64,000 nt of DNA, taken from positions 10,352-74,351 of the forward strand of contig JAYTHE010000003.1 of NCBI GenBank assembly GCA_043732705.1, read 5' to 3'. The position numbers and the translations under genes were made by a program. The notes beneath the pieces were generated by a model. It saw only the letters and a program-made list of their open reading frames with translations, was not told where the DNA came from and made no database searches. Numbering within the stretch: the first letter of the stretch is position 1; the number at the start of each line of letters is the position of its first letter. Origin of the DNA: Candidatus Omnitrophota bacterium (lineage in GTDB: Bacteria > Omnitrophota > Omnitrophia > Omnitrophales > Aquincolibacteriaceae). Shown one piece after another: positions 3,019 to 25,900 of this stretch.

Positions 3019-6000
3019 TTATGCGGCGGAGGAAACAATTTGAAGGGTTTGCAGTATTTGTAAGATTTTCCCAGCCATACCAAGAAAACCTGCGCGCGTC
3101 ATCTTGTAACGCTTAATCGTGCCTATTGGCTTATTTTCTTCAAACCCTTCTAACTGCCTGCTTCCGGAAAATTCTGAAAATTTTGTTGCCTGTAAATTAA
3201 GCACTAATGCGCGCTTGTCCGGAGCAACCGAATCTAAATCCGCTCGATCAAAAGTAGATACTCCTTTGACATTGGATTTATCAAAAAAATCAGCCGGAAA
3301 AATATTCAGCTTATCTTCGCTTCCGACTAAACCATATTCCGCTCCACCGAAGAATCGAGCTGCCGCATCTTTCAAAACTCTCTGGGCTTTATCCGCTGAG
3401 CCTAAAATCTCAAATTTAATTCGTCCTGAATATTTTTTGGAACTCTCCGACATTTTCCAATTCTGATTCGCTGCGGCCAAAATAAGTATTTTGTGGTTGG
3501 GCTTAGCCTCAAGCACAGGCACCACATCTCGGAGGAATTCTTCTTCGGTTGGAAGTTTATCAAGAATCAACGCTGTATTAGCATGCTCTTCGCTTGCTAT
3601 GTCGGATCGACGAATCGCATCAATCACATTTCCATTTTCAGAGCGCAGCGCCACAATCTGCGCATATTCGTCAATTGTGGAGATTTGAATTGCTTGGCGC
3701 GCTTTGAGCGTATCTGCGTTAGCCTCTTTGCTTCCGAAATTAAAAATACCCCAAGCTAATAATACGGGGATCAATTTAAAAATCCCGCGCGCTTCGGATC
3801 TTTTAAGCGCATCGGGATTGAAACCTAATTGTATTTTCTCTATACCTGAAATTTGTGATCGTAATTCGGAACGATTTGCTTTTTCTTTAGCAACTTGAAC
3901 TGCGTTTTCAAGAAATTCAAACATTTTCATACCTTTTCCGAAAGCACCAATTATTCCAAGCGCGCCGGCCTTGGCTTTAATTTCATCAGTCAAATCGCCC
4001 GTATTAAGTATAAAACTTAATTTTTCATCCATTTTCATCCACTTTTCAATAAGCGCCCAGCCTTCTTCCCCTTCTCCAACATTCTCGCCGCCGCCAGGCG
4101 GCATATCTTTATCTGTCACAATAAGTGAATATTCCTGAAAACGCTTTTGCAAGTGTTTGTCAGCTTGTTCCGCCGCATCCTGTCCAACAATCAAAGTTAC
4201 ATGATCATCTCCCACAATCATTCTCAATATATCAGCAACTACTTCTCCATTTTGCTGCTTATCATCCACAACCATGATTCTATTTCGGGGGCTCTTTGCT
4301 TCGTCCGGCTTCTGAACCATTTCCTTATCGGGTTCTAAAGCCGAAATTTTTGCAATATGCTCTCCCAGCTCAATTAAAAATTCTTCGTAAATCTGTCCGG
4401 CTCCAGACTGCACTCCCAATTGCATAATTTTATCACTCAAAGCTTCGAATTCATTTCCAAGAGTTTTGAACCCGACTATTTTTTCTTCCGTTGTCATCTC
4501 GATTGAAAAAACAAGATGCGCTAATCGGCTTTTCACAATCATCATCAAGACTTGATAGACCGGACTATTTTTTTCTAAGTGACGCGCAACATCATAATGA
4601 TTATTCACTACCTGAATTAAGAAGCTTTTAAGATTGTCCAATGCGTCGGAGCGAATTTCGGAACGAACAGCGACTTTGGGATTACCGCGCGATTTGGCGC
4701 GGTCTTCAGCTGTCGCAATGCGGTTTTCCGATCGATTTTGTTGTCCGTCGTCTACTTTACTGCTTTCCGCAGCAGATGTTGATCTTAAAATAATAATATT
4801 CTGTCCGATTTTCTTTTCGACTGTAAAATTCTCTCCCAACTCATCTTCGAAAACTCCAACTGCCACAACGCGGATTACTCGCTCCGCTCCAGTTGCTCTT
4901 AATTGCCGCATCATGACGCCAAACGATCGATCCATGTTAGGACGAAAAACATAAAAAACCGTTCCGTCTTTAAAGGGATTTGGCCGCTGCGTGGTTGCTT
5001 CGTCTATATCTTGAAAGTCTCCCTTCCAGATTGCCATTTCTTTTAAATGAATGCGTTTTTCTTCCGCTATTTTTTTCAATGCTTCAATAATTTTTTTACT
5101 CAATTCAAATAATGCATCGTCTCTCTCCACCCCTTTTGCTGCTCCTGCTTGGGTTAATAATCCCGACAGCCAAACAACACGCCCATCACCTGAGCCTAAA
5201 TCATAAATAGTGTCTTCAGCACTTAGTTGGAGTTCATTCAAAATTGCTGCGACAGTTCTTAAAGGTGTACGCGCAAAATAAGCCTCTTCCTGCACGACCG
5301 CCTGTCCATAGTTTATCGGCTCAGGATTGATTTCTTTTGCGAGCTTAGCTAGTTCATTTAATTGATCTTCCAAAGCTCCCCACCCATCCGGAAGCTTACT
5401 ATTTATTTGCTCATTAAGAACGCTCGCAAATGCATCTATCCTTTTTCCCAACTCAGCTTTTTTCTGCTCCTTCACATCCCGCATTTCGGAACGGGATTTT
5501 GATTGAAAACGCGATAGTTTTTTGAATCCTAAAAATCCCGCCAACAGTGACATCGAAATTATCGCGTTAAAATAAAGCGGGGTTAAATCAATCGGCTGAT
5601 CCGATTGCCAAATTGCGGTGACCGCCAAACCCATTAATATGAATACGCTCGCTGACATCGAAAGAATAAATGCAATCCCGGCTGATTTCCCACGCTGAAT
5701 GCTTCTTTTTTCACGGCCACTCAAAGCAACTACCACAGCCGCAATGCCCGCCAAAATCAAAGGCAAGCGGGAAAACTCTTCAAACAGGGTTTTAGCAAGA
5801 ACAGGCTCTGCCGCTTGGGGTTCGGGGAAGACTTCAGCCGCAACAAATAACTTCGATTCTGCTGTTTTAGAAAAATTGCTGCGCCTCAACATCGCAACTG
5901 CCACCCTTGTTTTCTTTGAATTGTCAGCGTCAATCTTTGCCTGTGCTTTTTCTCTTTTGGTTGCGGCTTCGGGAGTCTCGTTTTTAGGAGCACGGATTAT

Positions 6001-9000
6001 TTTTATACGGTAATGGTTTGCGTAAAAATTGAGCGCCCGCGCTTCAATCTTTGCCGCGTTGAGAGGATCTTTCTCATCACCCACTAAATCAGGAATATTC
6101 GCGAGAAATGAGGCGTCATCCTTCGAATTCTTCCAAATTTGACGGAAGACAAGTGTCATCATAAATGTCAAATCCAGCTTTTCGTTATTGAGGATTTTTT
6201 TAGCAAGCCATGGGCCGATGATATCCATCGCTTTTGTTTCATTGTTGGGCGCTTGGGCTTTAAGCGTGTCAACCAACTCTTTAATTTCATCTGCCTTCAA
6301 GCCAAGGCCTTCCGCGATCTCGGAGTGCAGATGATTGAGCACGGTTGACCGTATGTCCGATCCTTTGAAATTGTTATAATAAAACCAAGTAAAAAGATGG
6401 TCTTGACCAACGCGGCTGCCTTCTTTTCCCGTTTCAATTTGTCCCCACCCCACAGCGATGAATTGCTCGATGAAATTTTTAATACGCTGGTTCTTGAGCC
6501 AATAGCCTGATTCATTCGCAACAATGATCTGTCCAAGCCGAATTAAACTTTCACGTTTATTTTCTTTTTCTTCTTCCGCAATATTCATTTCATTAAAAAT
6601 CGGGTCGAGAATTTCATTCAAAATTTTACGGGCTTCAGCCGGACTAAAACGATTCGTTTCTTTTTGCTGCGCTTCTTGATCCTTCGTGAGTCGGACAATC
6701 TGTTTTGGCACAACCTCCGGAGCTTCGTTTAAAATTTTAAGAACATTCGGACTTTTGATTTTCTTTAATTTCGCGGGATCAAGCATATTTGCGGGAGCCA
6801 TTTTTAATTCTGGTGTAGTTAATTTTGCGATCGCCTCTAGTGGACCTGCCAACGCGATGGTTCCCGCGGTTACGATTTGCCCTAAGAAGCCGCGCCTATT
6901 TCGTATTTCGGAGCGTCTAACTGCCGGCTGCGTAGGAGCGGCGAGTTCGGCGTCAAATTCGCGCCTAAAAAGTTCCACTATTTCATGTCGTGAAGATTTA
7001 AGGTCATTCCCTTCCTTCAAAATAGTCTGATTAAGATCCATATAAAGCTGCGGCAATCCCGCCCATGAAAAATAATGGCCTGAAAAATTCCCAACATCAG
7101 CGTTTCTGAAATAGGATGAAAAAATTTCAGGAAATTTCTTTCCAAGCATCTCTTTTAATTCTAATCGACGGCCCGATTCAACCGATCCGAATTTGGGCGA
7201 ATCATAAGGATTCTCAAGCATTTTTTGAAAAATCATGATACTAAAAATCAATGATTCAAAATTTTTGATTAAATAAGCCAGTCGGTCATCAGGCGATAAT
7301 TCAGAAAGCGCAGTCGTTCCTTCATAATCTTTAAGGCGCGGCCGCCCATTTTCATAAACAAAATTATTATTTGTCGGTTGTCCATGTTTAGCAAAAGCAT
7401 TGAGGTCACGTAAACTTCCGGCGTATTCACCGAGACGCAAAGACAACCAGTCTGTTAACTCGATGGAATCTTTCGTTTCTGCGGCTTTTTCCGCTACCAT
7501 CGAATAAAGGCTGGTTTCGTCCTGTCCTTCCAAGAGCTCAATAAAGTAGCCGACTTCAATCGTATGAGTTCCCGACTTATCACGATAGGAAAAATTTTTA
7601 TTCGTAAATTTACCAAAGCCAACCGGAGGAGCCACAAGCAGTTTGTTTTTTTGAGCAAGCTTTGCTCCGTGAAACCGACTCTCAGCATAGATCGCTTCAC
7701 TTGAGCCTGCAGGGTGTGGCGGAATATCAATCCAGTGAATGACTCCGTCTCGAGGCGCAAGCAATACTTCGGATTGGCTATTAGCTCTAAAATCAAGCGG
7801 CGGAATATCTTTATCAGCGGAAATTAAAACTCCGATTATTTTCGCAGATTCATACTTTCTGCCTTCAATTTCAACCGGCCGGATCAAAGGCAAAATCACA
7901 GTTCGGTGATCATCCCAATCACCAACGGTGTGCGCACGGCCATTTGAAAAATTCCCGCCCTGCTTTAAAATATACATAATTCTGTCTTGGTCCACTGCTA
8001 ATTTGTCCCAAATATCGCCATCAACATAAAATTCACTGGTTAATGGCGCTGACGGCCCATCAATCACAATTGTCCGCATTTCGCCTGCCTGCCGGCGAGG
8101 CAGGGAGCGCGCAGTCTTTGGAACCGCAATAATCAATTTTGATGCTTTAACAAAAGAACTATATTCGGGGTAGTCTGCTGGTAAATCTTGAATAGAAACA
8201 TCAAACCCCGCGTTTTGAATAGCGGCCATGATTCCATTTTGTCTGCTATCAATCACATCATTGCTCTCAACGGTGACAAGTAAAATGCCTCCCGGATTTT
8301 TTAAAAGTTCCAAAGCGCGATTTGCAAGCTCACCAGGGGCCGTCTCAATATTATTAATAGTTACAATCTCAACAGGATGTTTCTTTAATTCTAAAAACTC
8401 GGATTCAAATTGCGCGTTTGCCTTGATGATTCTTTTACGGACATTTTCATTAATCGGAGTAGCTTCATCAGGATAAGGTTCAGTTGCCTTCCAACCTTTT
8501 ACTTTATAACCCCTGTCCCTCAGATATTTTTCGAATTCCGGCGGAAAAGCTCCCGCCCCGGTGTCCAAATCAATAAATTCAAGCTCTGCTCCGGCAGAGA
8601 GACGCTGACTCAAAAGATCCGCAAGAGTTCGCATTTCGGAGCGTTTAACTGAAGGAATAAGCGGAACCGGGTTAAATTTTAAAGGTTTCGCGTTTAAGTA
8701 GTCACTTAACGCCAAATTACTTTCTATTTGAATCTCGTTTGGAGCTAACCGGGGGAAACCTAGAGTTACAGCATCCGGTTTCATCCAAAAAACATCTAGG
8801 GTTACTCTCAAGCGAGCATCTTGCGGCAGTTGGTGGATATTTTCTTCTCCCACGATTTTCTTTAATCGCAAAAGAATATAATCGGTCAAAAGTTTAATAT
8901 CAGAGTTTACTTTTTGTTTGAATATATTTACCTCTTCGGCCTGCATTCCAAAAGGCGCGTAGACATCATAGGTCTTTTCCGCCCCACGCACCTCATTGCC

Positions 9001-12000
9001 CTTGCGATTTGCAAACATCGCGTTGCCGCCAATGCGCGTAAACGAAAAATCTTGTATAAGATCAGAAGGCACACCTGTTTTTATTTCAATTTCGCCATTG
9101 TGCGGGTTAAGTGAAATAAAATAGCGGGTCTCCAAACTTCGAGGACGGCCTTCTTTTTCGACCTTAAAAAGGTCGAGCATCTCTTCAATCATTCCGGCAT
9201 CGTTGAGACTGCTGCTTATTTTTTCCCAAATCGTATAAAGAGCATTAGCGGCATTTTCATAACTGTGAGTTTCAATCTTAATTTCAAGCAGCCCTTGATC
9301 GGGCAAACGGGTGACTGCAACGCCCGGAATCTTCTCAATGGCCTGAGGAATAATTGTGGCCCAATCAATTCTCCGAGACACATCTTTCTCCGGCTGATAA
9401 GCCATGCTAACTTTTAAATGGTCTGCATCTTCTCTTTCAATAAAGAAAATGCCTTCGCCGCCTGCACCGCCATTGGGTTTAAATACAAGCGGGAGCTTTC
9501 GATTTCCACTCACAATCTCTCGCGCAAGACTTTTAAAATTTAAAAGATTTTCACCAGGAATGAGCTGCCGTTTTAAAACTTTAAATACGTCGCTTTCTCT
9601 TTTCGCAAGCTGTTGTGGAGCCTGTATGCCCGCAAAGAACTTAACGCCCTCAATCGGCGCACCTTTCATCATTTCTCGCACTCCCAACTTCGTAAACAAA
9701 ACATTAAAAAGATTTTGCAAAGAAATTGGATTTTGCCGCATTTCGGAGCGAGCAACTTTAGACTCGAGGGAATTGAACTCTCCAACACTCTCGAGTCTCC
9801 GGTCTTCGGCTTCCGGGCTTTCGATTTTGCGCGATTCCTGTCTGCCGGCAGGCATGGCAAAACGAAGAGGGGCCAATCCAGTTTGAAATACCGCAAGCAT
9901 CAATTGGAAAAGCGAATTAGGCGCGCCTTGCCCGGATGCAGCTAATCTTCTATCCACAAAAAATTTGCCGGCCCTGAGCAAACCCAATATACCCGTTAAA
10001 ACACCCAATGTGGTTATCCAGGGAAAAGCCGCGAAAACTGCAGCAAGTGCGCTCGCAACTCCTGCCACACCAATAACAACGAAAGCAAGAGCGGTCGGAA
10101 TACTTATCGAACGGTTCTCTGATCGATGATTGCCCGGCTCTTTCAAATTTGCAGCGACACCTATCGAGCGCAATTCATCACGCCCCTCATCATTTAACTT
10201 TCCACCTTTTGAAAGAAAGTCTTTCAAGCTCATCACGACGGGTTTTGATCCGGGCACTCTCTGAAAGATTCGTTCGGCCGATTTAATATTTTTTAAACTT
10301 TGCGGCTTTTGCAAGCGAATCACAATTTGATTAACTTGTACCAACTGAGGCAATCCATTTTTTACCTCCGTTCCATCCGATCGTCGTCGGGCTCTTCTCG
10401 CCTCAATATAACTATCCCAATTTTTTAAAGTTTTTACGTTTTTAAAGTTTTTAAGCATTGATTTCAGGCGCAATTCTGACTTTGTTCTGTCGTCTAAGTG
10501 AAATTCCAACATAATTTCCGGGTTGACTCCTTCGGGCGTACCTGCTGGAACCTCAAAGCGTTTTAAAAGTGCTGCAAGTGTGGGAAACCCCTGCTTTTTC
10601 AAGAATGCCGAGAGTTTCAACTGTCTTTCTTTCGAACCCGGCTCAAAATCAAATACAAGTGGTTCCGGCCATTTCAGTTTTTCCGCGGAACTTACCTTCT
10701 CAATGCTCTCGCCCTGCTTCCGCATTTCGGAGCGGGCCATTTCAGGCCCGAGACCCAAGGCCCGAGACCCGAGGGTTTCAAGTCTTGCATCACCGAACGC
10801 CGTCCCGGCGGGAGGGGTTAGATCTGCATGGGCCTCAAAAAGCTTTGAAAGGTTATGTGCCAAAGCAAAGGTGTCTAGGAAATTCTCGAACCCGGGGTTT
10901 TCGTAATCCTTTTCTAGATAGAGCGCCTTATCTTTCGTCAGATCAACTTGTTTACGTAATGCTGTCAAATCCGCCAGCAATTTTTCCTGGCCCGTTTCAA
11001 ACGGCAAACCGTGAGAAAAATTTTCTCGGGCTTTCTGATTGTATTTCAGCGTTGCTTCGAAAGAATAAAATAAATATTTCATTATGACCGGCACAACATA
11101 CCCATCAACAAAGTGTCCTTCATGCTGAAACCAATCAAATTCATTCAAAATGAGCATCAAGGTAAGCTGTTCATGCTCATCCGCTGAAAAAACTTGAAGC
11201 GCCTCAAAAAGTGGCACCATCGTTTTTTTCAGATAGGATTGCTTGAGGGCTTCAAGCACAACGTCGCCTCCCTCCTGTGCGCCTAAAAAAATTTCCAATG
11301 CCGCGTAATAATCCATATATTTTGAGCTGTGAACATAGTCCGTCCCCATAATTTCTTTTGTAAAGAATTCCGTCATAGCCTCATTGATGGTTGAATTGTA
11401 ATAATCAAAGGAATGATGCAGCGCCTCGTGAAGCAAGACCGACCTTACCTTTTTGGCATCGCGCGTTAACATGACCTCTTCCCTGATACGAATTTCTCCG
11501 TTTCGTATATCGTAGTCTCCATTAATGTCATCTAAGCTTCTCCACACACCTATTTGGGAAATATCAATTTTGTTCGCCGCACCCTTAAAGTAACTTTTTA
11601 ATTTTTGATTGACCCATCGCACGTGAACATCCAACACTGCGGCATAAGCAGCAGTAACATTTTCGGGGGGCTGTTTGGCTTCAACTGCCGGTTCATTTTT
11701 TGAAGACGCTACATCAGCTAACAAAAGTCCCGCTGACAACGCCTCTGCATACAAATGCTTCTGGATCTCGATCCCAGACAAATTTGTCCATTTCTCAGGA
11801 TCTAATCTTGCCGCGGCCACGGCTTCAGCTTCTACCAGAGCCATATAATGCTTAACGCCTGTTATATTGATGCGAAATTCGGAGCGGCCGGTATCCCCAT
11901 CTTCCGCGGATTTCGGTTCTCTGTAAGGGTTTAGTCGAATGATTCTTCTGATAACGTCTGTCTTAAGCTTACTAATTTGTCCCGCGGCTTTCGGGGTTTC

Positions 12001-15000
12001 GGAAACAGTTTCAAGCCGCCGAAGATCTCTTTGAGCTCCCAGAACAAATTCTGATGTAGCAAGTGAAAATTTCCGGTCGAGTTCCTCAAACTGCGCGTAT
12101 GCATCCCGATACTTTCCGGTATTAATCAACTCAATTAAAGCTTGCTCGGCAACCCGCCATTGCTCGCGTCCATAATCAAAAGTATCCGTTTTTAGTTCGC
12201 GGCGTGATTCGGAACGGGCGCGAAGCCCGACTTCTTTCCGCATTTCGGAGCGGCCCTCGGGATGCTGCAATTCGTAACGGCCGATCCCTGCGAGTTGCGC
12301 GGGAGTTGCTTTGGCATAAGCGTCTTTATCATCTTTTTGAATTCGCGAACCATCGCTAAAAACATAAACCCCACTGTCGAGTGACTCCGGCATTCCTAAG
12401 AAAGGCCAATGCCCGTCGGCTAAGGGTCTTGACAGGGCTTCCACGGCTATAGTGAAATTAACATCAGGATCAATTGCTTCTATGCTTGGCCATGCCCTTA
12501 AAATTTCTGATATTTCAGCTCGGTGCGCGTAAATGGCGGCGGCACGATCCACATCATTTTCAAACTTAGAATTTTTCAATAATTCAGATAAAAGCCCGCC
12601 TTTTACCTCCCGGTGAATTTTATTAATATCCGGGTCAGCGCCAAAGCCAGGCAAGGCTTTTAACTGTCTCTCATACATCGAAATAAAAGTTCTTAGACTT
12701 TCAAGAAAGTTGTTCGCCTTTTCGTCAGCCCGAGATTCGGAGCGGGCTTTGAACTCCATGCGCCAAACAGGCTGATCACTATCAAAATATTTTTGGCTGT
12801 CGAGAAAATAATGAACCCGAAGCTTTGCGGCTGCATTTCGAAATACCTCGTCGCCAACCCCCTTATCTAACCAGCTTTCGACGCCAAACTTAACATCATA
12901 TTCAGTCGCATCGCGCCATTCAGCTCCATTTTTTTTACCCTCACTTTCATGCGCGAGAATAAAAACACGTGACTCTGTTAATCTTGTAATCAAGTCATCC
13001 GCCGTAATTAATCTTCGCGATTCAGAGCGGACAACGTCTGCGATGAGCGGTTTGCGCGCCGTGGTTGGTGATTTGAGCTGACTACTGATCGCTGGTAACT
13101 GACCGCCGAAATTGCGTGATTCGGAGCGCGGTTTGGTAAAAATCATTCTTCTAATTTTTCCGCCTAAATGACTTTGCGGATCGGGTTCTGAGTTCTGCCA
13201 AATCTTCCAACCCTGCCGTAGAAGAGGGGCTAAATACTGATGATAGATGGGAGCGAATGCCGTGTCGGACTCATGAGTATCGGCAAACTCAATAATGAGT
13301 CGTCCTTCCGGCAGTATTTTGCTTGCCAGATTTCTCCAAAATTCGACTGCTACATCCGCCGATGTCACTTTGGGGCTTATACGCGGCTCATAGTACCAGA
13401 CGTTTTTTAATCGGATTACTTCGTACGGGGACGGATCCCGAACCACATCCAGCAAATCTCTTTCTTCGATTTCAACATTTTTCATCTCGCTAATTGCAGC
13501 CGTCTCTTTCAAAAGTCCTGCAATAAAATGATTGCTATCATTAAATACAACTTTTCTATTCGGTGGAAGCGAGTAGATAAAGTCAGACACTACTACTCCC
13601 GAAGCCAAATCTAAGTATCCATTTGTTACCATATTTACTTCCGGTAACACCGGGGGAACCCAAGCTTTATCACTTATAAACGCATTATTCTTTTCCACCA
13701 AGATATTCGCAAGGTACCTGCCCAATAAATCAATAAGGTGATATTCTTTTTCCTCTTTTCGAGAGCTTTTGTTAATAAATTGCTCGACTTCATCGGGGAC
13801 ACGCGATGCTTTGCCAAAAAGAATCGCGCGCGGATCTGTGTTGACTGAAACCCATGCACGACGCCATTGTGTCGGATTCAAGCTTGTTTCCATCATAAAG
13901 AACGCAGCGTTCAGAACCTTTTGATCAAAATTATTTCCAGAAATAATTTTTAAAAAAGGAGTTTGTCCAAAATGAGACCGAATTTCATCCAGCAGTTCTT
14001 GTTTTCTCATTTCCGAGCGGATTTTTGAGTGGACAGATTCCCATCTTTTCGCGTTTGCCTTTTGCTCTTCACTGCCGTAGAAAAATTCTGTGACGGCATC
14101 ATAAACCCACCCGCTTTGTTCAAAGTAAGCGATCGAGGCCTCCTGCGAAAGATACTTACTCCGGAGATCCTCCAGCGTATAACGATTCCAATGCAATTCT
14201 TGCAATTCAAATTGCTCGGCCAATACTGATGCAAAGTCACTTAACTCTCCCACCCGCGTCTCGGCTGAAATTGGAATCATAAGATCAATTCCGAGATACG
14301 TTTCTCTCACTTGAACCCGGCCATAAGACCATGCCGGAGCCGCGCTGTTAAAGTTCATAAGAATTTCTCGATTTTTTTCAGAAAGTGTTTCTTTATTGAA
14401 ACGGATTAAAGCATGCGGCGGCAAATCAGGATCTCTTCCTTGAATATCTTTGCGGTTTGCCGAAGTGTTAGTGGTTTCGATATTTTTTCGAAAAAGAATT
14501 TTGACGGATTCTAAAAGTGGCTCGTCGACCAAAGCATCCCATTCATTTTCGGCATAAACAACTCCGTCCATTGGGCTTTCGTTAGGTTCAATTTCTGCAA
14601 TTTTTTGATCGCGCGATTCGGAGCGGGTAATTTTATCCATATACTCTTTCGCGGCACCTTCGGCTTTTGCCCTGCTCATTCCTTCAATTCCCAAAAGAGC
14701 ATTTTCAATTCCTCCGCGTATTAGCGCTTCATTTGCGCCTTGTGCTTCTTGCGCCGCCCTACTTTCAGAGCGAGTGATAATTTCCACCGTAGGGCTCGGA
14801 GAGCCCGTATCGCGTACATCGTGAAGCGTATCTCGGGAAGAATTAGACGAGATGCCGGATGCGAGGGACGCTTCACTCGCGCTACTGTGCCCTAGCATCA
14901 CTTCGCGATAAAGGTTGGAATTTTCAACCTGTGTCAGGCGCGGTGTGAGAGTGCCGTAGCTGATGTCATGCTCGCGGAATAAAGTTTTGAGGCCGTCGGT

Positions 15001-16791
15001 GTGGAAGCCTCCGGTCATCACAATCGCCTTGTCGGTATGAGCGAGCTCTGCTTCAATTTTTTGAAAGAAAACTTCTTCACGCCGGGTCGCGAAACCGTAG
15101 AAAGAGAAGGCGCTATCAAAAGCAGTTTGAACCTGCTTTTGATAAGGTGTCTGGATTCCCGCCTGCGCGGGAATGACAGAACTTTGTTCTTTGTTCTTTG
15201 TTCCTTGTTCGGAAAGGCTATCAGCCTTTGAGTTATGGTTTTGACTTTTAACCTTTAAGCTTTGACCTGAAAGTGATTTCACTCGTTCAAAAAACTTTTG
15301 TGGTTCGAGTTGATCTTTTTGTGAAATCACTTTCTGCCATTCGTCGCGGCTTAACTCGAGATTTAATAATTTTCTGACTAATTCCGCATCACGAAAAAGG
15401 GCAATCAACTCCGACCCTGTCCACATCGGATGTGCACAACCTTGTACACATCCGATGTGGACAGGGTTGTGTTCGTTTTGATCGAGCAGTTTGTCAAAAA
15501 GCTTTCTGATTTCAGCAAACAGTGAATTTGGCTCGACCTCGTAACGTAAAATTAAATATCCTGCTTGCAGCGCAAAATTCGGATAATCAGAAAATTTCAA
15601 GCCCTTCGGCCCGGCCTCTTCAACCAGCTTCTCAATAAAAAAGCGTGGCAGCGATTCTGTCTTTCCAGAAGAAGCTTTGATGGTATTGAGATTGATGTGC
15701 TGTTCATCGAAGAGTTCGAGTTTTTGAATGAGTTCGTTGCGAACTCCTTTCTTTTTCATCCACTCAATGATTTGTTTTCTTTCAATCTCAGCGGCTTGTT
15801 TGGCTGTTATTTTCTGTTCGTCTAAGTCTGAAGGTTTTGGGCTATGGTTTTGACCTTTAAGCTTTAAGCTTTGGGCTCGCGGCTGCTTCAACTTCTCTTC
15901 CATGCTTTGCAAAACGAGCAGCCGCGTCAGCTGCGGCCATTCGATTTGCGACATAAGGCTATGGAGGTCCAAATCTAAATTTTCTTTCGCGAGCTTTGCA
16001 AGGCTTGAAACAAACGGAATAAATTCGCGATGGCCTTTTTCAAATTTCTTCCACTCGCTCAGAATATTGCGCTTTTGCGGTGGAAGCATTTTCGAAGCAA
16101 GTTTATCGAGCTCACTATCAAGGCCGTTTAAAAAGCGTTTCGTTTCTGTGTCACGGCTATAAACCGCTTTGAGCGCTTCATAATTTTTGCGGTACAAGTC
16201 TGCTTTTTCAATTCCAACGCCTTTGATTTCGTCTGTTGGGGACTGTCCCTGCATGGGGACTGTCCCCTGTGGTACTAAGGAACCATTGGGGTCAGTCCCG
16301 CACGCGGCTTGGGACAGACCCCGTTCCGAGCCCTCCAGCAAAAACCAATCGGCACCCGTGATCTGTCCGCGTTTGGCAAGTTCATCCCAAAGTTTTTTAT
16401 TTGTCTCCGCGTCAGGGAAAAGTTTTAAATATTCCGGATTGAGGTTCTCCGAGGCGCCTTCGACAAAAATGGTCTTGAATCCGTAGTTTTTATTCAGATA
16501 AACCATCAAGTCGCGAATCTTTTGCTGAGCTTCATAATTCGTATGCGCGTTTTGAATATGCAAAATCATTTTAGGATTGGGACGCGCAGGAGCTTCGTAG
16601 AAGTCTTCTACGCTCGCAAGTTCAGCCGGGATATCAATTTGCATCAGCTTGGGTGTTTCCGCTCGCGGAGACAAATCGATACGCATGCCCGCGTCAGCGA
16701 AGCATGTATTTATAGTGAAGAAAAAGACCAGGGCCGCGGCCGTAGTCTTCTTCAACACACTATTTATGTGATCAAGAGAAGTTTGTGTCAT
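3019..16791 (-). CDS. Giant secreted or membrane-anchored multidomain protein (4590 aa), giant protein 1.
   Basis: A continuous 13.8 kb ORF. The N-terminus MTQTSLDHINSVLKKTTAAALVFFFTINTCFADA looks like a signal peptide. The N-terminal module is shared with the other two giants (HIQNAH..., GGFHTDG at 14995..15015). It contains an HEALHH (HExxH) motif, an ATP-grasp-like stretch, the class-I SAM-methyltransferase motif IYDLGSGDGRVV, a CheY-like receiver-like segment RIMVVDD...LIVTDKDMP, several hydrophobic transmembrane segments and about 19 R-S-E-x-R motifs. Confidence 0.85.
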   Translation of the reverse strand: MTQTSLDHINSVLKKTTAAALVFFFTINTCFADAGMRIDLSPRAETPKLMQIDIPAELASVEDFYEAPARPNPKMILHIQNAHTNYEAQQKIRDLMVYLNKNYGFKTIFVEGASENLNPEYLKLFPDAETNKKLWDELAKRGQITGADWFLLEGSERGLSQAACGTDPNGSLVPQGTVPMQGQSPTDEIKGVGIEKADLYRKNYEALKAVYSRDTETKRFLNGLDSELDKLASKMLPPQKRNILSEWKKFEKGHREFIPFVSSLAKLAKENLDLDLHSLMSQIEWPQLTRLLVLQSMEEKLKQPRAQSLKLKGQNHSPKPSDLDEQKITAKQAAEIERKQIIEWMKKKGVRNELIQKLELFDEQHINLNTIKASSGKTESLPRFFIEKLVEEAGPKGLKFSDYPNFALQAGYLILRYEVEPNSLFAEIRKLFDKLLDQNEHNPVHIGCVQGCAHPMWTGSELIALFRDAELVRKLLNLELSRDEWQKVISQKDQLEPQKFFERVKSLSGQSLKVKSQNHNSKADSLSEQGTKNKEQSSVIPAQAGIQTPYQKQVQTAFDSAFSFYGFATRREEVFFQKIEAELAHTDKAIVMTGGFHTDGLKTLFREHDISYGTLTPRLTQVENSNLYREVMLGHSSASEASLASGISSNSSRDTLHDVRDTGSPSPTVEIITRSESRAAQEAQGANEALIRGGIENALLGIEGMSRAKAEGAAKEYMDKITRSESRDQKIAEIEPNESPMDGVVYAENEWDALVDEPLLESVKILFRKNIETTNTSANRKDIQGRDPDLPPHALIRFNKETLSEKNREILMNFNSAAPAWSYGRVQVRETYLGIDLMIPISAETRVGELSDFASVLAEQFELQELHWNRYTLEDLRSKYLSQEASIAYFEQSGWVYDAVTEFFYGSEEQKANAKRWESVHSKIRSEMRKQELLDEIRSHFGQTPFLKIISGNNFDQKVLNAAFFMMETSLNPTQWRRAWVSVNTDPRAILFGKASRVPDEVEQFINKSSRKEEKEYHLIDLLGRYLANILVEKNNAFISDKAWVPPVLPEVNMVTNGYLDLASGVVVSDFIYSLPPNRKVVFNDSNHFIAGLLKETAAISEMKNVEIEERDLLDVVRDPSPYEVIRLKNVWYYEPRISPKVTSADVAVEFWRNLASKILPEGRLIIEFADTHESDTAFAPIYHQYLAPLLRQGWKIWQNSEPDPQSHLGGKIRRMIFTKPRSESRNFGGQLPAISSQLKSPTTARKPLIADVVRSESRRLITADDLITRLTESRVFILAHESEGKKNGAEWRDATEYDVKFGVESWLDKGVGDEVFRNAAAKLRVHYFLDSQKYFDSDQPVWRMEFKARSESRADEKANNFLESLRTFISMYERQLKALPGFGADPDINKIHREVKGGLLSELLKNSKFENDVDRAAAIYAHRAEISEILRAWPSIEAIDPDVNFTIAVEALSRPLADGHWPFLGMPESLDSGVYVFSDGSRIQKDDKDAYAKATPAQLAGIGRYELQHPEGRSEMRKEVGLRARSESRRELKTDTFDYGREQWRVAEQALIELINTGKYRDAYAQFEELDRKFSLATSEFVLGAQRDLRRLETVSETPKAAGQISKLKTDVIRRIIRLNPYREPKSAEDGDTGRSEFRINITGVKHYMALVEAEAVAAARLDPEKWTNLSGIEIQKHLYAEALSAGLLLADVASSKNEPAVEAKQPPENVTAAYAAVLDVHVRWVNQKLKSYFKGAANKIDISQIGVWRSLDDINGDYDIRNGEIRIREEVMLTRDAKKVRSVLLHEALHHSFDYYNSTINEAMTEFFTKEIMGTDYVHSSKYMDYYAALEIFLGAQEGGDVVLEALKQSYLKKTMVPLFEALQVFSADEHEQLTLMLILNEFDWFQHEGHFVDGYVVPVIMKYLFYSFEATLKYNQKARENFSHGLPFETGQEKLLADLTALRKQVDLTKDKALYLEKDYENPGFENFLDTFALAHNLSKLFEAHADLTPPAGTAFGDARLETLGSRALGLGPEMARSEMRKQGESIEKVSSAEKLKWPEPLVFDFEPGSKERQLKLSAFLKKQGFPTLAALLKRFEVPAGTPEGVNPEIMLEFHLDDRTKSELRLKSMLKNFKNVKTLKNWDSYIEARRARRRSDGTEVKNGLPQLVQVNQIVIRLQKPQSLKNIKSAERIFQRVPGSKPVVMSLKDFLSKGGKLNDEGRDELRSIGVAANLKEPGNHRSENRSISIPTALAFVVIGVAGVASALAAVFAAFPWITTLGVLTGILGLLRAGKFFVDRRLAASGQGAPNSLFQLMLAVFQTGLAPLRFAMPAGRQESRKIESPEAEDRRLESVGEFNSLESKVARSEMRQNPISLQNLFNVLFTKLGVREMMKGAPIEGVKFFAGIQAPQQLAKRESDVFKVLKRQLIPGENLLNFKSLAREIVSGNRKLPLVFKPNGGAGGEGIFFIEREDADHLKVSMAYQPEKDVSRRIDWATIIPQAIEKIPGVAVTRLPDQGLLEIKIETHSYENAANALYTIWEKISSSLNDAGMIEEMLDLFKVEKEGRPRSLETRYFISLNPHNGEIEIKTGVPSDLIQDFSFTRIGGNAMFANRKGNEVRGAEKTYDVYAPFGMQAEEVNIFKQKVNSDIKLLTDYILLRLKKIVGEENIHQLPQDARLRVTLDVFWMKPDAVTLGFPRLAPNEIQIESNLALSDYLNAKPLKFNPVPLIPSVKRSEMRTLADLLSQRLSAGAELEFIDLDTGAGAFPPEFEKYLRDRGYKVKGWKATEPYPDEATPINENVRKRIIKANAQFESEFLELKKHPVEIVTINNIETAPGELANRALELLKNPGGILLVTVESNDVIDSRQNGIMAAIQNAGFDVSIQDLPADYPEYSSFVKASKLIIAVPKTARSLPRRQAGEMRTIVIDGPSAPLTSEFYVDGDIWDKLAVDQDRIMYILKQGGNFSNGRAHTVGDWDDHRTVILPLIRPVEIEGRKYESAKIIGVLISADKDIPPLDFRANSQSEVLLAPRDGVIHWIDIPPHPAGSSEAIYAESRFHGAKLAQKNKLLVAPPVGFGKFTNKNFSYRDKSGTHTIEVGYFIELLEGQDETSLYSMVAEKAAETKDSIELTDWLSLRLGEYAGSLRDLNAFAKHGQPTNNNFVYENGRPRLKDYEGTTALSELSPDDRLAYLIKNFESLIFSIMIFQKMLENPYDSPKFGSVESGRRLELKEMLGKKFPEIFSSYFRNADVGNFSGHYFSWAGLPQLYMDLNQTILKEGNDLKSSRHEIVELFRREFDAELAAPTQPAVRRSEIRNRRGFLGQIVTAGTIALAGPLEAIAKLTTPELKMAPANMLDPAKLKKIKSPNVLKILNEAPEVVPKQIVRLTKDQEAQQKETNRFSPAEARKILNEILDPIFNEMNIAEEEKENKRESLIRLGQIIVANESGYWLKNQRIKNFIEQFIAVGWGQIETGKEGSRVGQDHLFTWFYYNNFKGSDIRSTVLNHLHSEIAEGLGLKADEIKELVDTLKAQAPNNETKAMDIIGPWLAKKILNNEKLDLTFMMTLVFRQIWKNSKDDASFLANIPDLVGDEKDPLNAAKIEARALNFYANHYRIKIIRAPKNETPEAATKREKAQAKIDADNSKKTRVAVAMLRRSNFSKTAESKLFVAAEVFPEPQAAEPVLAKTLFEEFSRLPLILAGIAAVVVALSGREKRSIQRGKSAGIAFILSMSASVFILMGLAVTAIWQSDQPIDLTPLYFNAIISMSLLAGFLGFKKLSRFQSKSRSEMRDVKEQKKAELGKRIDAFASVLNEQINSKLPDGWGALEDQLNELAKLAKEINPEPINYGQAVVQEEAYFARTPLRTVAAILNELQLSAEDTIYDLGSGDGRVVWLSGLLTQAGAAKGVERDDALFELSKKIIEALKKIAEEKRIHLKEMAIWKGDFQDIDEATTQRPNPFKDGTVFYVFRPNMDRSFGVMMRQLRATGAERVIRVVAVGVFEDELGENFTVEKKIGQNIIILRSTSAAESSKVDDGQQNRSENRIATAEDRAKSRGNPKVAVRSEIRSDALDNLKSFLIQVVNNHYDVARHLEKNSPVYQVLMMIVKSRLAHLVFSIEMTTEEKIVGFKTLGNEFEALSDKIMQLGVQSGAGQIYEEFLIELGEHIAKISALEPDKEMVQKPDEAKSPRNRIMVVDDKQQNGEVVADILRMIVGDDHVTLIVGQDAAEQADKHLQKRFQEYSLIVTDKDMPPGGGENVGEGEEGWALIEKWMKMDEKLSFILNTGDLTDEIKAKAGALGIIGAFGKGMKMFEFLENAVQVAKEKANRSELRSQISGIEKIQLGFNPDALKRSEARGIFKLIPVLLAWGIFNFGSKEANADTLKARQAIQISTIDEYAQIVALRSENGNVIDAIRRSDIASEEHANTALILDKLPTEEEFLRDVVPVLEAKPNHKILILAAANQNWKMSESSKKYSGRIKFEILGSADKAQRVLKDAAARFFGGAEYGLVGSEDKLNIFPADFFDKSNVKGVSTFDRADLDSVAPDKRALVLNLQATKFSEFSGSRQLEGFEENKPIGTIKRYKMTRAGFLGMAGKILQILQTLQIVSSAA
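3950..4295 (-). other. CheY-like receiver domain-like segment inside giant protein 1.
   Basis: SPRNRIMVVDDKQQNGEVVADILRMIV...SLIVTDKDMPPGGG resembles a response-regulator receiver, with an acidic pair and a phospho-acceptor Asp before M-P. Confidence 0.45.
5100..5230 (-). other. Class-I SAM-dependent methyltransferase motif region inside giant protein 1.
   Basis: EDTIYDLGSGDGRVV is encoded at 5181..5219 (motif I, D/ExGxGxG). Downstream are GVERD and KGDFQD. Confidence 0.55.
11406..11439 (-). other. HExxH zinc-metallopeptidase-like motif (VLLHEALHHSFD) inside giant protein 1.
   Basis: The reverse complement of 11406..11439 translates as V L L H E A L H H S F D. The motif alone is weak evidence for a peptidase. 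Confidence 0.4.
15154..15178. repeat. Family-A palindromic repeat inserted in-frame in giant gene 1.
   Basis: ggattcccgcctgcgcgggaatgac translates in-frame as …VIPAQAGIQ…. Confidence 0.75.
15230..15269. repeat. Family-C repeat half-copy, in-frame in giant gene 1.
   Basis: gagttatggttttgacttttaacctttaagctttgacctg translates as …SQSLKVKSQNHNSKA… A second copy, gggctatggttttgacctttaagctttaagctttgggct at 15838..15877, translates as …AQSLKLKGQNHSPKP…. Confidence 0.6.
15414..15471. repeat. Family-B palindromic element (core TGTACACATCGGATGTGTACA / CACATCGGATGTG arms), in-frame in giant gene 1.
   Basis: Perfect inverted arms ccctgtccacatcggatgtg … cacatccgatgtggacaggg. It translates as …NPVHIGCVQGCAHPMWTG…. 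Confidence 0.7.
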
Positions 16792-22982: not shown

Positions 22983-25900
22983 TTATGCCTGTGTTGAAAA
23001 TCTCCGTGCTGACATCACAAAGTTTTCAAGCACATCGACAATCGACAAGTTTCTTACCCCTGCAAGCGGCGCACCACGATTGCCGTAAACAACCAAGGCT
23101 TCAGGAGTAGAACCCAGCAATTGCGCCACACGCATGGCCTGCTGTTCAACGCTTAGGCTGTTCATAGCACTGCTTGCGCGGACTTCAACCACCTCATTCG
23201 CATCAATACGTTGATTACCTTTCATAAATCTCACATAAGCATCCAACGGACCAGATTGCGATTGCAGAATCCATTTCGCGTTCACACTGGGCAATTGCTG
23301 TTTAAGCGCAACAACCTTAACTTCACTGTCCTTATCAAAATAGAGCACAAGCTTTTTATTGGGTGAGCTGCTTGCCATGGATTGAATTAAAAGTGCGTCC
23401 GGATTTACAAGCAAAACATACCCCGAAGTTTGCGCAAAACTTGAAGCTCCAAAATCCACACTGGGCAATTGCGCCAACAATTTCTGCAAGCGAGCTGTTT
23501 CTAATTCCGAAGCAACCGACGCGCTTTCGCTTAAAGCCGCGGATAAATCACGAAATTCCGACCGATTCTTTCCGGAATCCCCCTTCTTTTTTTTCTGCGG
23601 AGCTTTGGGCGGAGCTTTTTCATTCCCCGCTACTTTAGTTTGCTTCAATACAGCCAATACCTTACTTACTCGTTCTTGCTTGGGGTTAGTTCCTGAAGGA
23701 AGTTTTGGTCTAACTATTTTCGAACTTCTACCCATATCGGTCCGGCGCCTTTTCCCTATAAGATTTGGACTCTCCACATTCTCGGGCGGCAAGAATTGTC
23801 TCAGCAATTCACCCTCTGCCTCCGCCAACACTTGGAGTTTTTCGGCAATTGTCATGCGCAGAGTACCAAACTTTTGCCGAACCATAACGTCAACACCGTC
23901 ATGTTGAAAACGCGGCGCCAATTCTAATAATTTCAATCCAAACGCTCCCAAATCGCCATTCAACCCGGAGACTCGCGCTTCCAATGCGGCGACCTCTTTT
24001 TCTAAATCTGCGTTCGGCTCAATTTTTCCATCGAACGCCAACTCTTTATTCACACCTTGGCGGAGCTGCTCGGCAAGGTCCTCAGCATCAACTTCAACGT
24101 GTTTAATGACAGCCTTTTTATGAGGCGACAAAGCTGAAATATCAGCTTGTAAAGCACTCAGTTCCTCTATCGTTTTATGATCGGCTTCGCCACTCGTTGA
24201 AATCTTCCCCTCAACAATTTCTTCAGCCCGCGGCGCTAAACTTGTCTCGCTCCATTGCAATAATTCAGCGGCTCCCTGTCCTGTTTTTCGAACAGTGTCC
24301 AATCGCTTTTTCCCTAAACTCACCGCAAGTCTGACATGCGCCATTGAAAAATTACTTTTTCCTTGAACAGAAGCGGCTGGTCCGGAGAGAGCAGCAGGCT
24401 TGCTCAGTTTTAGAATCGCAGTTTGAAGCGCTAACAACTCTTCAACCAATCTCTTTTCGTCCAGATTTGAGGGCTTTAAAATCTCATCATTAATTTGTTC
24501 CGTCAAAGGCAAGAGATCTTGAGACTGCCACGCTATTAATTCAGCAATTCCCTGACCCGATCTTTGCGCTTCAGCCAAACGCGGCTGCCCCATTTTCAAT
24601 GCCAAGCGTACAAGCGTAAAATTTGATTTTAATGGCGGTGTTTTCTGTTTTTTTGCTTGAGCCGCCGGGCGTGAAAACATAAATTCACGGAACGAACTTT
24701 CATCCTGGGTCACCACAGTAAAGGGCAAAGAGCCGTGATAATAATATTCCGGTTCATTCTCATCAAGAACAATGCCTGTAGCTTGAAGAAGTCTTCTGAT
24801 CGCGGCGGCAACCGGGGCGCCAGATTGAGTTGAGGCTGTTGTCGCGGCACGAATTTTACTTGCCGTGCCGAAGAGCCATTTTCCCAAATTGACAAAGGGA
24901 CTCGCGACAGCTCGAAAAATATTATAAGTGGATTTTCTGATTTTACTGGCTACATCAAATGCGGCCACATAAAAAGTGGTAATACGCAGCTGGCCGGCAA
25001 CCGCAAATTCAAAAAATAAAATATGGTCTCGCTGTCTTTCAAAATAATCGGCAGTCAACGTTTCTGCGGCATACAAATTACCGTTTTTCAATTCTGCGCT
25101 CAAAATTTCCCGCACCAATCTGCGCGCCTCTGTGACTTGAGCGTCATAGAACTGATTTTGAAAACGCATATCATCAAACGCTTTTCTGATGCTTTCAGCC
25201 GCTGCATCCGAAATTTTTAAATGTTCTCGAAGCGATTGCACAAACTCCGCGTGTACGGAAACTTCCTTGGCAAGGTCATTGTGAATCACCAAGTTTTTTT
25301 GGCCTGCGAGTCGTTTTCCGGAATCCTGCGTGATGGTCATAATGTTTGGACTAATACGAGCCAAGCCAAACCATCTTTCCAGAAATCGAAATGGCAAGCT
25401 GGCAATTCCATCGGCTTGTTTACCGAACAATTCAGAAGCTTTGGCGCGCTGCCAGAGACCAAGCAGTTTCCCATCAGGAATTGTATTGACCACATGCGAA
25501 GCTGTATTAACCATAGGCGGGCCATAATGTGCCGCTTCGGTATGGCTAAGACGTTGGGCAAAAACACGCACAATACTGGGGGCATCACTAAAAAGCTTGT
25601 TCCAAAACTGCCATATAATACGAATATTTAATGGTGATTCTACCAAAGCGACTCCCGGTAAAGTCTGAGAAACTAGAAGACGGCTGAAATCCGCACGAAA
25701 AATTAATTTAAAAAACCATTTACTAAAGGACCAAACAAAAGCCTGCAACGAATTTGTTTTTATTTGGGCCCAGTTTTGGATCATGGCTTTTAAAATACTT
25801 CTTACTAAACGGTAAGAAAAAACAGCGATATAAGGAACCGCGGCGACCACGATGAAATTAATTGAACCATAGAGAATAGCAGCTAAAAGCGATCCGGGCG

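Follow-up and report, generated by a model that had tools for sequence, protein, structure and literature searches.

Are the giant proteins of Omnitrophota single megaproteins, or are they cut into pieces? The question is raised by a 64,000-nucleotide (nt) stretch of DNA from a Candidatus Omnitrophota bacterium (GenBank assembly GCA_043732705.1, contig JAYTHE010000003.1, positions 10,352 to 74,351 of the forward strand). The whole stretch is called the window here, and all coordinates are positions in it. It holds three giant open reading frames (ORFs), all on the minus strand: g1 at 3019-16791 (4,590 amino acids, aa), g2 at 22983-33083 (3,366 aa) and g3 at 34922-48601 (4,559 aa). A first-pass annotation had described a 'giant protein 1' at 3950-11440 with a metallopeptidase-like HExxH motif, a class I methyltransferase motif, an ATP-grasp-like stretch and a CheY-like receiver. 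With small offsets all four motifs were recovered in one minus-strand ORF, g1, of which the described range is only a part. What had been missed is the organising feature of the protein. Its modules are delimited by a recurrent pentapeptide, R[SA]ExR, and some of them open with export signals of their own. We give about even chances to the reading that g1 is a polyprotein, which would be cut at or near this pentapeptide on the cytoplasmic side and whose products would be sorted one by one.

The pentapeptide, from here on the separator, is highly enriched. RSExR was observed 19 times in g1, where 0.09 copies are expected; g3 has 12 copies and g2 has two. When Ala is allowed at the second position, the counts in g1, g2 and g3 are 19, 2 and 14. 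The window's 17 ordinary genes, which together encode 6,626 aa, contain no R[SA]ExR. A protein search with g1 gave a set of 78 giants of 2.5-7.8 thousand amino acids (kaa), consisting of g1 and 77 relatives. Over this set the separator was by far the most enriched gapped 5-mer, with 546 copies of RSE.R and 174 of RAE.R; position 4 was V, A, M, L or S, and the flanks were not conserved. A count over 79 relatives came to ~730 copies of R[SA]ExR. In g1, all features of which lie on the minus strand, separator 1 (RSESR) is at nt 14758-14772 (aa 674-678). Separators 2-7 follow at 14611-14625, 14005-14019, 13114-13128, 13015-13029, 12730-12744 and 12238-12252, separators 8-13 at 12202-12216, 11872-11886, 10720-10734, 10111-10125, 9736-9750 and 8629-8643, and separators 14-19 at 6901-6915, 5479-5493, 4720-4734, 4651-4665, 3859-3873 and 3787-3801. 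The 19 separators give 20 segments, and the resulting layout is a signal-peptide-led N-terminal module of ~630 aa followed by ~19 unrelated modules. Paired separators enclose spacer peptides of 7 (12202-12252), 18 (4651-4734), 19 (3787-3873), 28 (13015-13128) and 44 (14611-14772) residues.

The separators lie between domains. In the four proteins checked (g1, g3, P0060 and P0044) none was inside a recognised domain, and the two-domain enzymes GDH_N+GDH and PEP-utilizers+PPDK_N were each kept in one segment. The family match of segment 13 fills the space between two separators, and in P0083 its counterpart has a separator at either projected module end. AlphaFold2 models were obtained for the N-terminal module and for segment 13, and in both the chain ends adjoining separators were of low confidence and are likely disordered. 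The giants thus show a recurrent short site between functional units, by which polyproteins are recognised. Relatives without R[SA]ExR (P0047, P0058, P0072, P0077 and P0090 were examined) have other recurrent motifs, either [AG]xSLG in 10-16 copies or SGARL[AS], and the motif types never occur together in one protein. A full-text literature search for R[SA]ExR gave nothing relevant. It has been proposed that Omnitrophota giants are cleaved after translation, with 'information about cleavage points' lacking (10.1101/2023.11.21.568195). Term searches in the available main texts of this preprint, of a second one (10.64898/2026.06.07.730766) and of the 2023 Nature Microbiology paper found no separator motif or cleavage site. 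A countable, conserved separator bears directly on the question of one megaprotein or several pieces. It supplies precise candidate cut sites that are testable by N-terminomics, and it allows structure prediction and annotation of giant ORFs to proceed module by module.

The positions of export signals were then compared with those of the separators. Of all separators, 7.9% have a hydrophobic stretch in the 25 aa that follow them, compared with 3.8% of random positions (p 1.3e-6), and upstream such stretches were depleted (1.8%). Internal signals resembling those of twin-arginine translocation (Tat), that is RRxF/L with a hydrophobic core, lay within 30 aa after a separator in 7 of 12 cases, where 5.9% was expected (p 1.6e-6); the signal at aa 3298 of g1 is among the seven. 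In P0047 a Tat-like signal comes directly after ASSLG. In g1, segment 15 (5494-6900, aa 3298-3766) opens directly after separator RSEIR with the Tat-like signal NRRGFLGQIVTAGTIALAGPLEAIA (NRRGFLGQ...; nt 6817-6900, from aa 3298) and continues with a domain without assignment and three hydrophobic helices (aa 3676-3692, 3706-3722 and 3739-3755). It is homologous to a module of P0004, which likewise comes after RSESR and a Tat-like signal. Segment 20, the C-terminal module (3022-3786, aa 4336-4590), has no family match in Pfam or NCBIfam and opens directly after RSEAR with GIFKLIPVLLAWGIFNFGSKEANA (nt 3712-3786; GIFKLIPVLLAW...ANA), a stretch resembling a signal of the general secretory (Sec) type. 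Segment 12 (9751-10110, aa 2228-2347) is a small membrane module with hydrophobic helices at aa 2237-2253, 2259-2275 and possibly 2293-2309; its membrane hairpin (aa 2237-2275) begins nine residues past separator RSENR. The protein itself begins with a signal-peptide-like stretch (16693-16791, aa 1-33), which was found in a hydrophobicity scan by its KK, hydrophobic core and CFA-DAG, and AlphaFold2 placed a helix at aa 5-31. Together, a hydropathy scan gave ~9 sites of transmembrane length in g1, which bears out the several transmembrane helices noted earlier.

Based on these observations, we propose the following course of events. The g1 ORF would be translated as one polyprotein, and a putative endopeptidase, acting from the cytoplasmic side, would cut it at the separators or close beside them. 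The signal-less zincin-like, ATP-grasp, methyltransferase and receiver modules would remain in the cytoplasm together with ATP, S-adenosylmethionine (SAM) and phosphodonors. Segments 1, 12, 15 and 20 would have a membrane helix or a signal of the Tat or Sec type as their new N-terminus, and would be inserted into the membrane or exported. Cutting at the separators would, if true, explain how ATP-, SAM- and phosphorylation-dependent domains come to be in one ORF with exported domains. Processed polyproteins are known from viruses, where the flavivirus NS2B-NS3 protease cuts after dibasic sites, and from Porphyromonas gingivalis with its gingipains RgpA and Kgp. By analogy, g1 would share with these a short Arg-rich site that recurs between units, short spacers between paired sites, and a signal or anchor on some of the products, which would hence reach both sides of the membrane. 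In contrast to them, no protease module that matches the site was identified, and g1 is encoded on a cellular chromosome with housekeeping neighbours and not by a virus. If confirmed, this would be a rare instance of a cellular organism that uses polyprotein genes as a general strategy.

The most serious alternative is that the chain stays uncut. In that case g1 would be a ~500 kDa multi-pass megaprotein that crosses the inner membrane at its ~9 hydrophobic segments, and its successive loops would lie by turns in the periplasm and in the cytoplasm. R[SA]ExR would serve as a flexible linker, or for docking or recognition, and not as a cleavage site, and the internal signals would be start-transfer helices, possibly trimmed outside by signal peptidase. 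Topologies of this kind, with transmembrane helices alone or behind a signal peptide, were predicted by DeepTMHMM for 94% of the long proteins of Omnitrophota in a published analysis (10.64898/2026.06.07.730766). With three helices in segment 12, the ATP-grasp, methyltransferase and receiver modules would be inside, the soluble part of segment 15 and the C-terminus would be outside, and this alternation fits the flanking Lys/Arg counts from aa 3306 onward. However, the Lys/Arg-rich loop after aa 2275 puts the chain before aa 2237 in the cytoplasm, which clashes with the N-terminal export signal on an uncut chain. Cutting at the separators removes this conflict. An uncut chain also gives no reason for a strictly kept pentapeptide between each module and the next, for pairs 7-44 aa apart or for lineage-specific motifs. 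Moreover, Tat signals are known to act at N-termini, with rare internal use, yet here they cluster right after separators. We therefore regard the uncut megaprotein as unlikely, although it keeps appreciable weight. As a heuristic, the positive-inside rule places the ATP-grasp, methyltransferase and receiver modules on the cytoplasmic side. This fits the earlier suggestion that part of the protein stays cytoplasmic, and the premise of a wholly secreted megaprotein is not supported.

Several points weigh against cutting at the separators. The topology was read with the positive-inside heuristic on a home-made hydropathy scan and not with a trained predictor, and an uncut multi-pass chain also puts the ATP-grasp, methyltransferase and receiver modules inside if aa 2293-2309 form a third helix. 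Only ~8% of separators precede a hydrophobic signal, so that the argument for cleavage is mostly indirect, and g2 has just two separators in its 3,366 aa. The codon conservation inside the separator, which is described below, exceeds the needs of a peptide signal. The cleavage is inferred. No protease is encoded among the genes neighbouring the giants in the window, and C39 and S8, the processing enzymes proposed in the two preprints, were not detected in g1. The N-terminal module is the sole universal module of the family. Its protease nature would have to be drawn from weak Pfam matches to ChaN/'Tiki superfamily', found in 2 of 19 members, and its Sec-type signal would carry it to the wrong side of the membrane for cutting cytoplasmic sites.

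Taken together, the separator types R[SA]ExR, [AG]xSLG and SGARL[AS] may be lineage-specific processing codes of a phylum-wide polyprotein system. Giant genes would then be operons fused at the protein level, with products that would be separated in the cytoplasm and then sorted individually, by Tat, by Sec or by insertion into the membrane. In each lineage the specificity of the protease would co-evolve with that of the site, and the conserved CGC-UCC-GAR codons would point to a co-translational step. This wider reading is tentative, and we put its chances somewhat short of even.

The modules expected in the cytoplasm were analysed one by one. Segment 16 (4735-5478, aa 3772-4019) was assigned to the class I SAM methyltransferases of the DOT1/aKMT type from matches in Pfam, PDB and NCBIfam. 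Pfam DOT1 (PF08123) matched with 31.8 bits (cut-off 23, expectation value (E) 1.4e-7), and with 26.2 bits in a scan of the whole protein. The PDB matches were aKMT 5fa8, an archaeal protein-lysine methyltransferase (E 4e-5), DOT1L and the RNA methyltransferase 5bxy. The NCBIfam archaeal protein-lysine methyltransferase gave E 8.9e-5, far under its cut-off. Motif I, IYDLGSGDGRVV, is at nt 5173-5208 (aa 3862-3873), close to the 5181-5219 given earlier. In the alignment, YDLGSGDGR and GVE of segment 16 correspond to YDLGCGDGR and GVE of 5fa8, and motif I and the acidic post-I are intact. The motif I and post-I claims of the first-pass annotation are thus upheld. Judged from its sequence, the support for segment 16 as a genuine class I SAM methyltransferase is solid. 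Its substrate is probably protein-lysine, as in the nearest families, with the match to the RNA methyltransferase 5bxy to be kept in mind; 5bxy was already a structural match in an Omnitrophota giant (10.1101/2023.11.21.568195).

Segment 13 (8644-9735, aa 2353-2716) appears to be an ATP-grasp module of the tubulin tyrosine ligase (TTL) type, as indicated by homologues, AlphaFold2 and Foldseek. It contains the ATP-grasp-like stretch noted earlier, VFKPNGGAGGEGIFFIERED (nt 9427-9486, aa 2436-2455). The Pfam matches stayed below threshold, with ATPgrasp_ST at 14.2 bits (cut-off 31.4, E 0.026) and ATP-grasp_3 at 12.7 bits (cut-off 23.2, E 0.13), and PDB sequence and profile searches gave no match. 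Homologues were found for the whole length of the segment: 34 cover it end to end, stand-alone proteins of 330-460 aa among them. Seven weak Pfam matches to the ATP-grasp clan were obtained among 21 family members (ATPgrasp_ST in three, ATPgrasp_YheCD in three and ATP-grasp_3 in one). With a 21-sequence alignment (A1), AlphaFold2 gave a model with a predicted local distance difference test score (pLDDT) of 84.6 and a predicted template modelling score (pTM) of 0.85. In the Foldseek search of the PDB with this model, all of the 50 best matches listed were TTL or TTL-like Pby1 ATP-grasp proteins (probability 0.90-1.00, best E 1e-3, template modelling (TM) scores 0.25-0.46), a result that is consistent with the TTL/Pby1 type, not strong. 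Lys2438 in VFKPN (segment position 86) is invariant in the family, and D179, E184, E202, D314 and E334 (segment positions) are near-invariant. Like the TTL-like ATP-grasp enzymes (PDB 3tig, 4i4t chain F and 6y3z Pby1), the module has the predicted fold, the Lys in the VFKPN strand and a size of ~340 aa. It differs from them in an identity of 9-14%, in the modest TM-scores and in having no Pfam TTL match. The family itself is bacterial, with at least 34 members, uncharacterised and without a named domain. The predicted structure thus backs the first-pass assignment, with good support at the level of the fold.

Segment 18 (3874-4650, aa 4048-4306) consists of a 120-aa helical N-terminal part and a CheY-like receiver core at nt 3928-4284 (aa 4170-4288), near the ~3950-4295 given earlier. 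Pfam Response_reg (PF00072) scored 16.7 bits (E 0.0083, profile positions 1-103 of 111), which is below its cut-off of 30.2. An independent profile was also used, built without g1 from Escherichia coli CheY and from receivers in seven further giants. It matched the whole g1 protein with 20.4 bits (E 1.9e-8) and aa 4170-4286 with 18.7 bits (E 6.4e-8), and the alignment spanned profile positions 5-108. As a control, ~160 reversed or shuffled sequences were scored, and the best of these decoys reached 4.9 bits. D4176/D4177, D4227, T4264 and K4286 align to D12/D13, D57, T87 and K109 of CheY. As in PF00072, the acidic pair, the acceptor Asp, the Thr and the Lys are in canonical order and spacing. 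In contrast to PF00072, a 9-residue Gly/Glu-rich insertion follows the acceptor Asp, the score is below the cut-off, and a 120-aa helical region of no assigned type precedes the core. Other weak receiver matches were SLN1 in the PDB (E 0.3) and EpsW/EspC in NCBIfam. A search of 5.8 billion proteins found no homologue of segment 18, and neither a cognate kinase nor an output domain was found in g1 or the window. The receiver called near the C-terminus is thus supported; there is good support for a genuine receiver at the domain level with an intact phospho-acceptor pocket, D4176, D4177, D4227, T4264 and K4286 all being present. The idea that it might be a decoy finds no evidence. Nor is a receiver unexpected in such a protein. 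Bona fide receiver domains occur in 7 of the 78 giants, and CheY-like receivers are among the common domains of Omnitrophota long proteins, with PF00072 found 105 times in 10.64898/2026.06.07.730766 and receivers also reported in 10.1101/2023.11.21.568195.

Segment 10 (10735-11871, aa 1641-2019) may be a zincin module, and its reading as metallopeptidase-like is weak. VLLHEALHH is present at nt 11413-11439 (aa 1785-1793; 11406-11439 was given earlier), with HEALH at nt 11416-11430 (aa 1788-1792) and a conserved Glu1804 in NEAMTE (nt 11380-11382). From the composition of g1, ~0.10 copies of HExxH are expected by chance, and across the family 45 were observed compared with 8.1 expected. Pfam SprT-like (PF10263) scored 19.2-19.4 bits (E ~1e-3), under its cut-off of 25.6. 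A database of 79 sequences yielded one homologous module, which belongs to giant P0069 (E 1e-8). This module keeps HExxH as HETLH and the Glu 12 residues past the second His (NEAMTE in g1, SEAVTC in P0069), and the Pfam SprT-like profile gave no match to it. PDB sequence and profile searches with segment 10 had no match, and the search of 5.8 billion proteins returned no homologue. The HExxH motif called in the first-pass annotation thus stands, whereas its metallopeptidase reading depends on a sub-threshold SprT-like match and a single homologue. The HExxH module of g1 was also considered as the separator protease and rejected, since the family does not conserve it and the giant that carries its lone homologue lacks R[SA]ExR. 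Profile searches had been named as the check for these folds; they put DOT1 above its cut-off, whereas the Response_reg, SprT-like and ATP-grasp matches remained under theirs.

All four modules have protein-modifying or signalling folds, and known TTL-type ligases and DOT1/aKMT-type methyltransferases have protein substrates. This would suit a delivered effector polyprotein, which would be exported to a host or prey and processed there, so that the methyltransferase, ATP-grasp ligase, zincin and receiver act on host proteins. In line with this, g1 has an N-terminal signal peptide, and variable 'cargo' stands behind a constant N-terminal module, as in modular toxins. A predatory or parasitic way of life has been inferred for Omnitrophota, and peptides of giant ORFs rise in attached cells (PMC10066038). 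However, the cargo of relatives includes the housekeeping enzymes phosphofructokinase, glutamate dehydrogenase, phosphoglucomutase and CMP kinase, and the giant genes sit among housekeeping genes. The internal bacterial signals of Tat, Sec and lipobox type that stand immediately behind separators speak for sorting within the cell that makes the giant. In g1 we detected neither translocation or pore-forming repeats nor an autoprocessing cysteine protease domain. The model for this reading, the MARTX toxins of Vibrio, are giant polypeptides whose variable effector modules are released by cuts in inter-module linkers. They carry glycine-rich repeats at the N- and C-terminus and a cysteine protease domain activated by inositol hexakisphosphate (InsP6), are cleaved after Leu and leave by type I secretion. 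By analogy, g1 is like MARTX as a giant bacterial polypeptide with a variable set of unrelated modules, with cutting that in g1 would be inferred. Unlike in MARTX, none of the repeat, protease, Leu-cleavage and type I secretion features was found in g1, and the cargo of the giants includes housekeeping enzymes and modules bearing bacterial export signals. We consider a delivered effector improbable.

The codons of the separator were analysed both here and in 22 further species. The first Arg was CGC in 54% of cases in this genome and in 69% in the other species, compared with a background of 25-26%. The Ser was encoded by TCN in 93-100% of cases, with TCC at 58-64% (background 15-20%), and almost never by AGY. 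All six codons of the last Arg were at background frequencies. Such codon usage, far from background here and in the 22 other species, together with the reshuffling of module content between relatives, would fit a separator that is primarily a nucleic-acid or translational signal. It would be a recombination junction for module shuffling or a decoding event at CGC-UCC-GAR, and the peptide would be a by-product. In contrast, the background codons of the last Arg, the variable position 4 and the Ser/Ala alternation are marks of peptide selection. An exchange of Ser and Ala via TCN and GCN accounts for the avoidance of AGY, not for the preference for CGC and TCC, and thus explains part of the bias. 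Within the giants, the 8-mer CGCTCCGA was found in 12 copies, all of them in frame; outside the giants, each strand has one copy. Since every copy of CGCTCCGA in the giants is in frame, the separator signal is tied to the reading frame and does not act as a DNA element independent of it. We give little credence to a nucleic-acid signal, and a frame-independent DNA element was rejected from these frame counts. Two further candidates were examined. Internal start codons were rejected, as only 8 of the 35 motifs here have Met at position 4, where Ala or Ser is frequent, and phosphorylation of the separator Ser is unlikely because Ala replaces it in a quarter of the sites.

That the motifs are chance matches or decayed remnants without present function is the least probable case and very improbable: a lone HExxH is expected 0.1 times, three of four Pfam matches are under their curated cut-offs and a search of a large database detected no homologue of segment 10 or segment 18, but the five receiver residues, methyltransferase motif I and post-I, the ATP-grasp Lys and HExxH with its Glu are all intact, the ATP-grasp module has a high-confidence predicted fold, and the 13.8-kb ORF is uninterrupted.

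The constant part of the family is the N-terminal module (14872-16752, aa 14-640), which was analysed with alignment A2 and AlphaFold2. BLAST and phmmer showed that aa 14-640 are the region common to relatives, always at the extreme N-terminus. Beyond it, the sole match to relatives in these searches was the weak one between segment 15 and P0004. The module is also at the N-terminus of g3 and, in part, in g2, which has only the C-terminal end of it in common with g1 and g3. Invariant residues in A2 include H83, E111, E195, R571, G594-G595 and H597. The AlphaFold2 model was confident (pLDDT 78.5), and neither a significant PDB fold match to the model nor a match in PDB sequence and profile searches was obtained. 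Relatives match 2-16% of g1, mostly the N-terminal 13-16%, and their remaining Pfam content is very different. Where a source is named, nearly all of the 78 giants are from Candidatus Omnitrophota, and two are from Verrucomicrobiae. A scan of one genome per species with g1 gave 22 related loci, 15 of them named Candidatus Omnitrophota/Omnitrophica and seven 'uncultured bacterium'. A protein identical to g1 is present in a public collection.

Two preprints present the long proteins of Omnitrophota as enzyme-domain mosaics in which methyltransferases, peptidases, PPDK_N and CheY-like receivers occur, and most of these proteins are predicted to be membrane-associated (10.1101/2023.11.21.568195, 10.64898/2026.06.07.730766). 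Most likely, g1 is a modular protein of their 'multi-enzyme' class: it is of Omnitrophota origin and combines a very long ORF, unrelated enzyme domains and hydrophobic segments, with a length under the 10-kaa threshold of 10.64898/2026.06.07.730766. It resembles the 'multi-enzyme metabolic cluster' of that preprint and the 'Archaeovorin'-type giants of 10.1101/2023.11.21.568195 in phylum, in its very long ORF and in a signal peptide and/or membrane helices. It also shares with them unrelated enzyme domains (HATPase is in the set as well) that are highly divergent from their families. These studies dealt with proteins of at least 10-30 kaa, whereas the g1 family has 2.5-7.8 kaa and is defined by a shared N-terminal module of ~550-630 aa. 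No mention of this module was found in the available text of the two preprints. The domain mosaic of g1, receivers included, is thus ordinary for Omnitrophota and of a kind already reported; the separators, the signals after them and the shared N-terminal module add to it what is new.

Segment 14 (6916-8628, aa 2722-3292, 571 aa) has no assigned function and no match in Pfam, NCBIfam or PDB. By eye, its stretch KHGQPTNNNFVYENGRPRLKDYEG resembles a kinase-like catalytic loop in which Gln would replace Asp. The genes surrounding the giants are ordinary chromosomal ones, encoding a ROK kinase, a pyrophosphatase, an RluA-type pseudouridine synthase, BipA, a DEAD-box helicase, FeoB, UvrB and ValRS. 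In g2, Pfam gave zero matches, and ~ten hydrophobic helices accompany its only two separators. A separator-bounded segment of g3 (37754-41896, minus strand, 1,381 aa) carries a phosphoenolpyruvate (PEP)-synthase-like pair, PPDK_N (E 2.6e-45, nt 37838-38776) and the PEP-utilizers mobile domain (nt 39626-39949), and is an entire enzyme of central metabolism as a single module. A gene for a PAS-SpoIIE (PP2C-type) phosphatase (49986-51158, minus strand) adjoins g3, and giant relatives have internal PP2C domains (P0004, PF00481).

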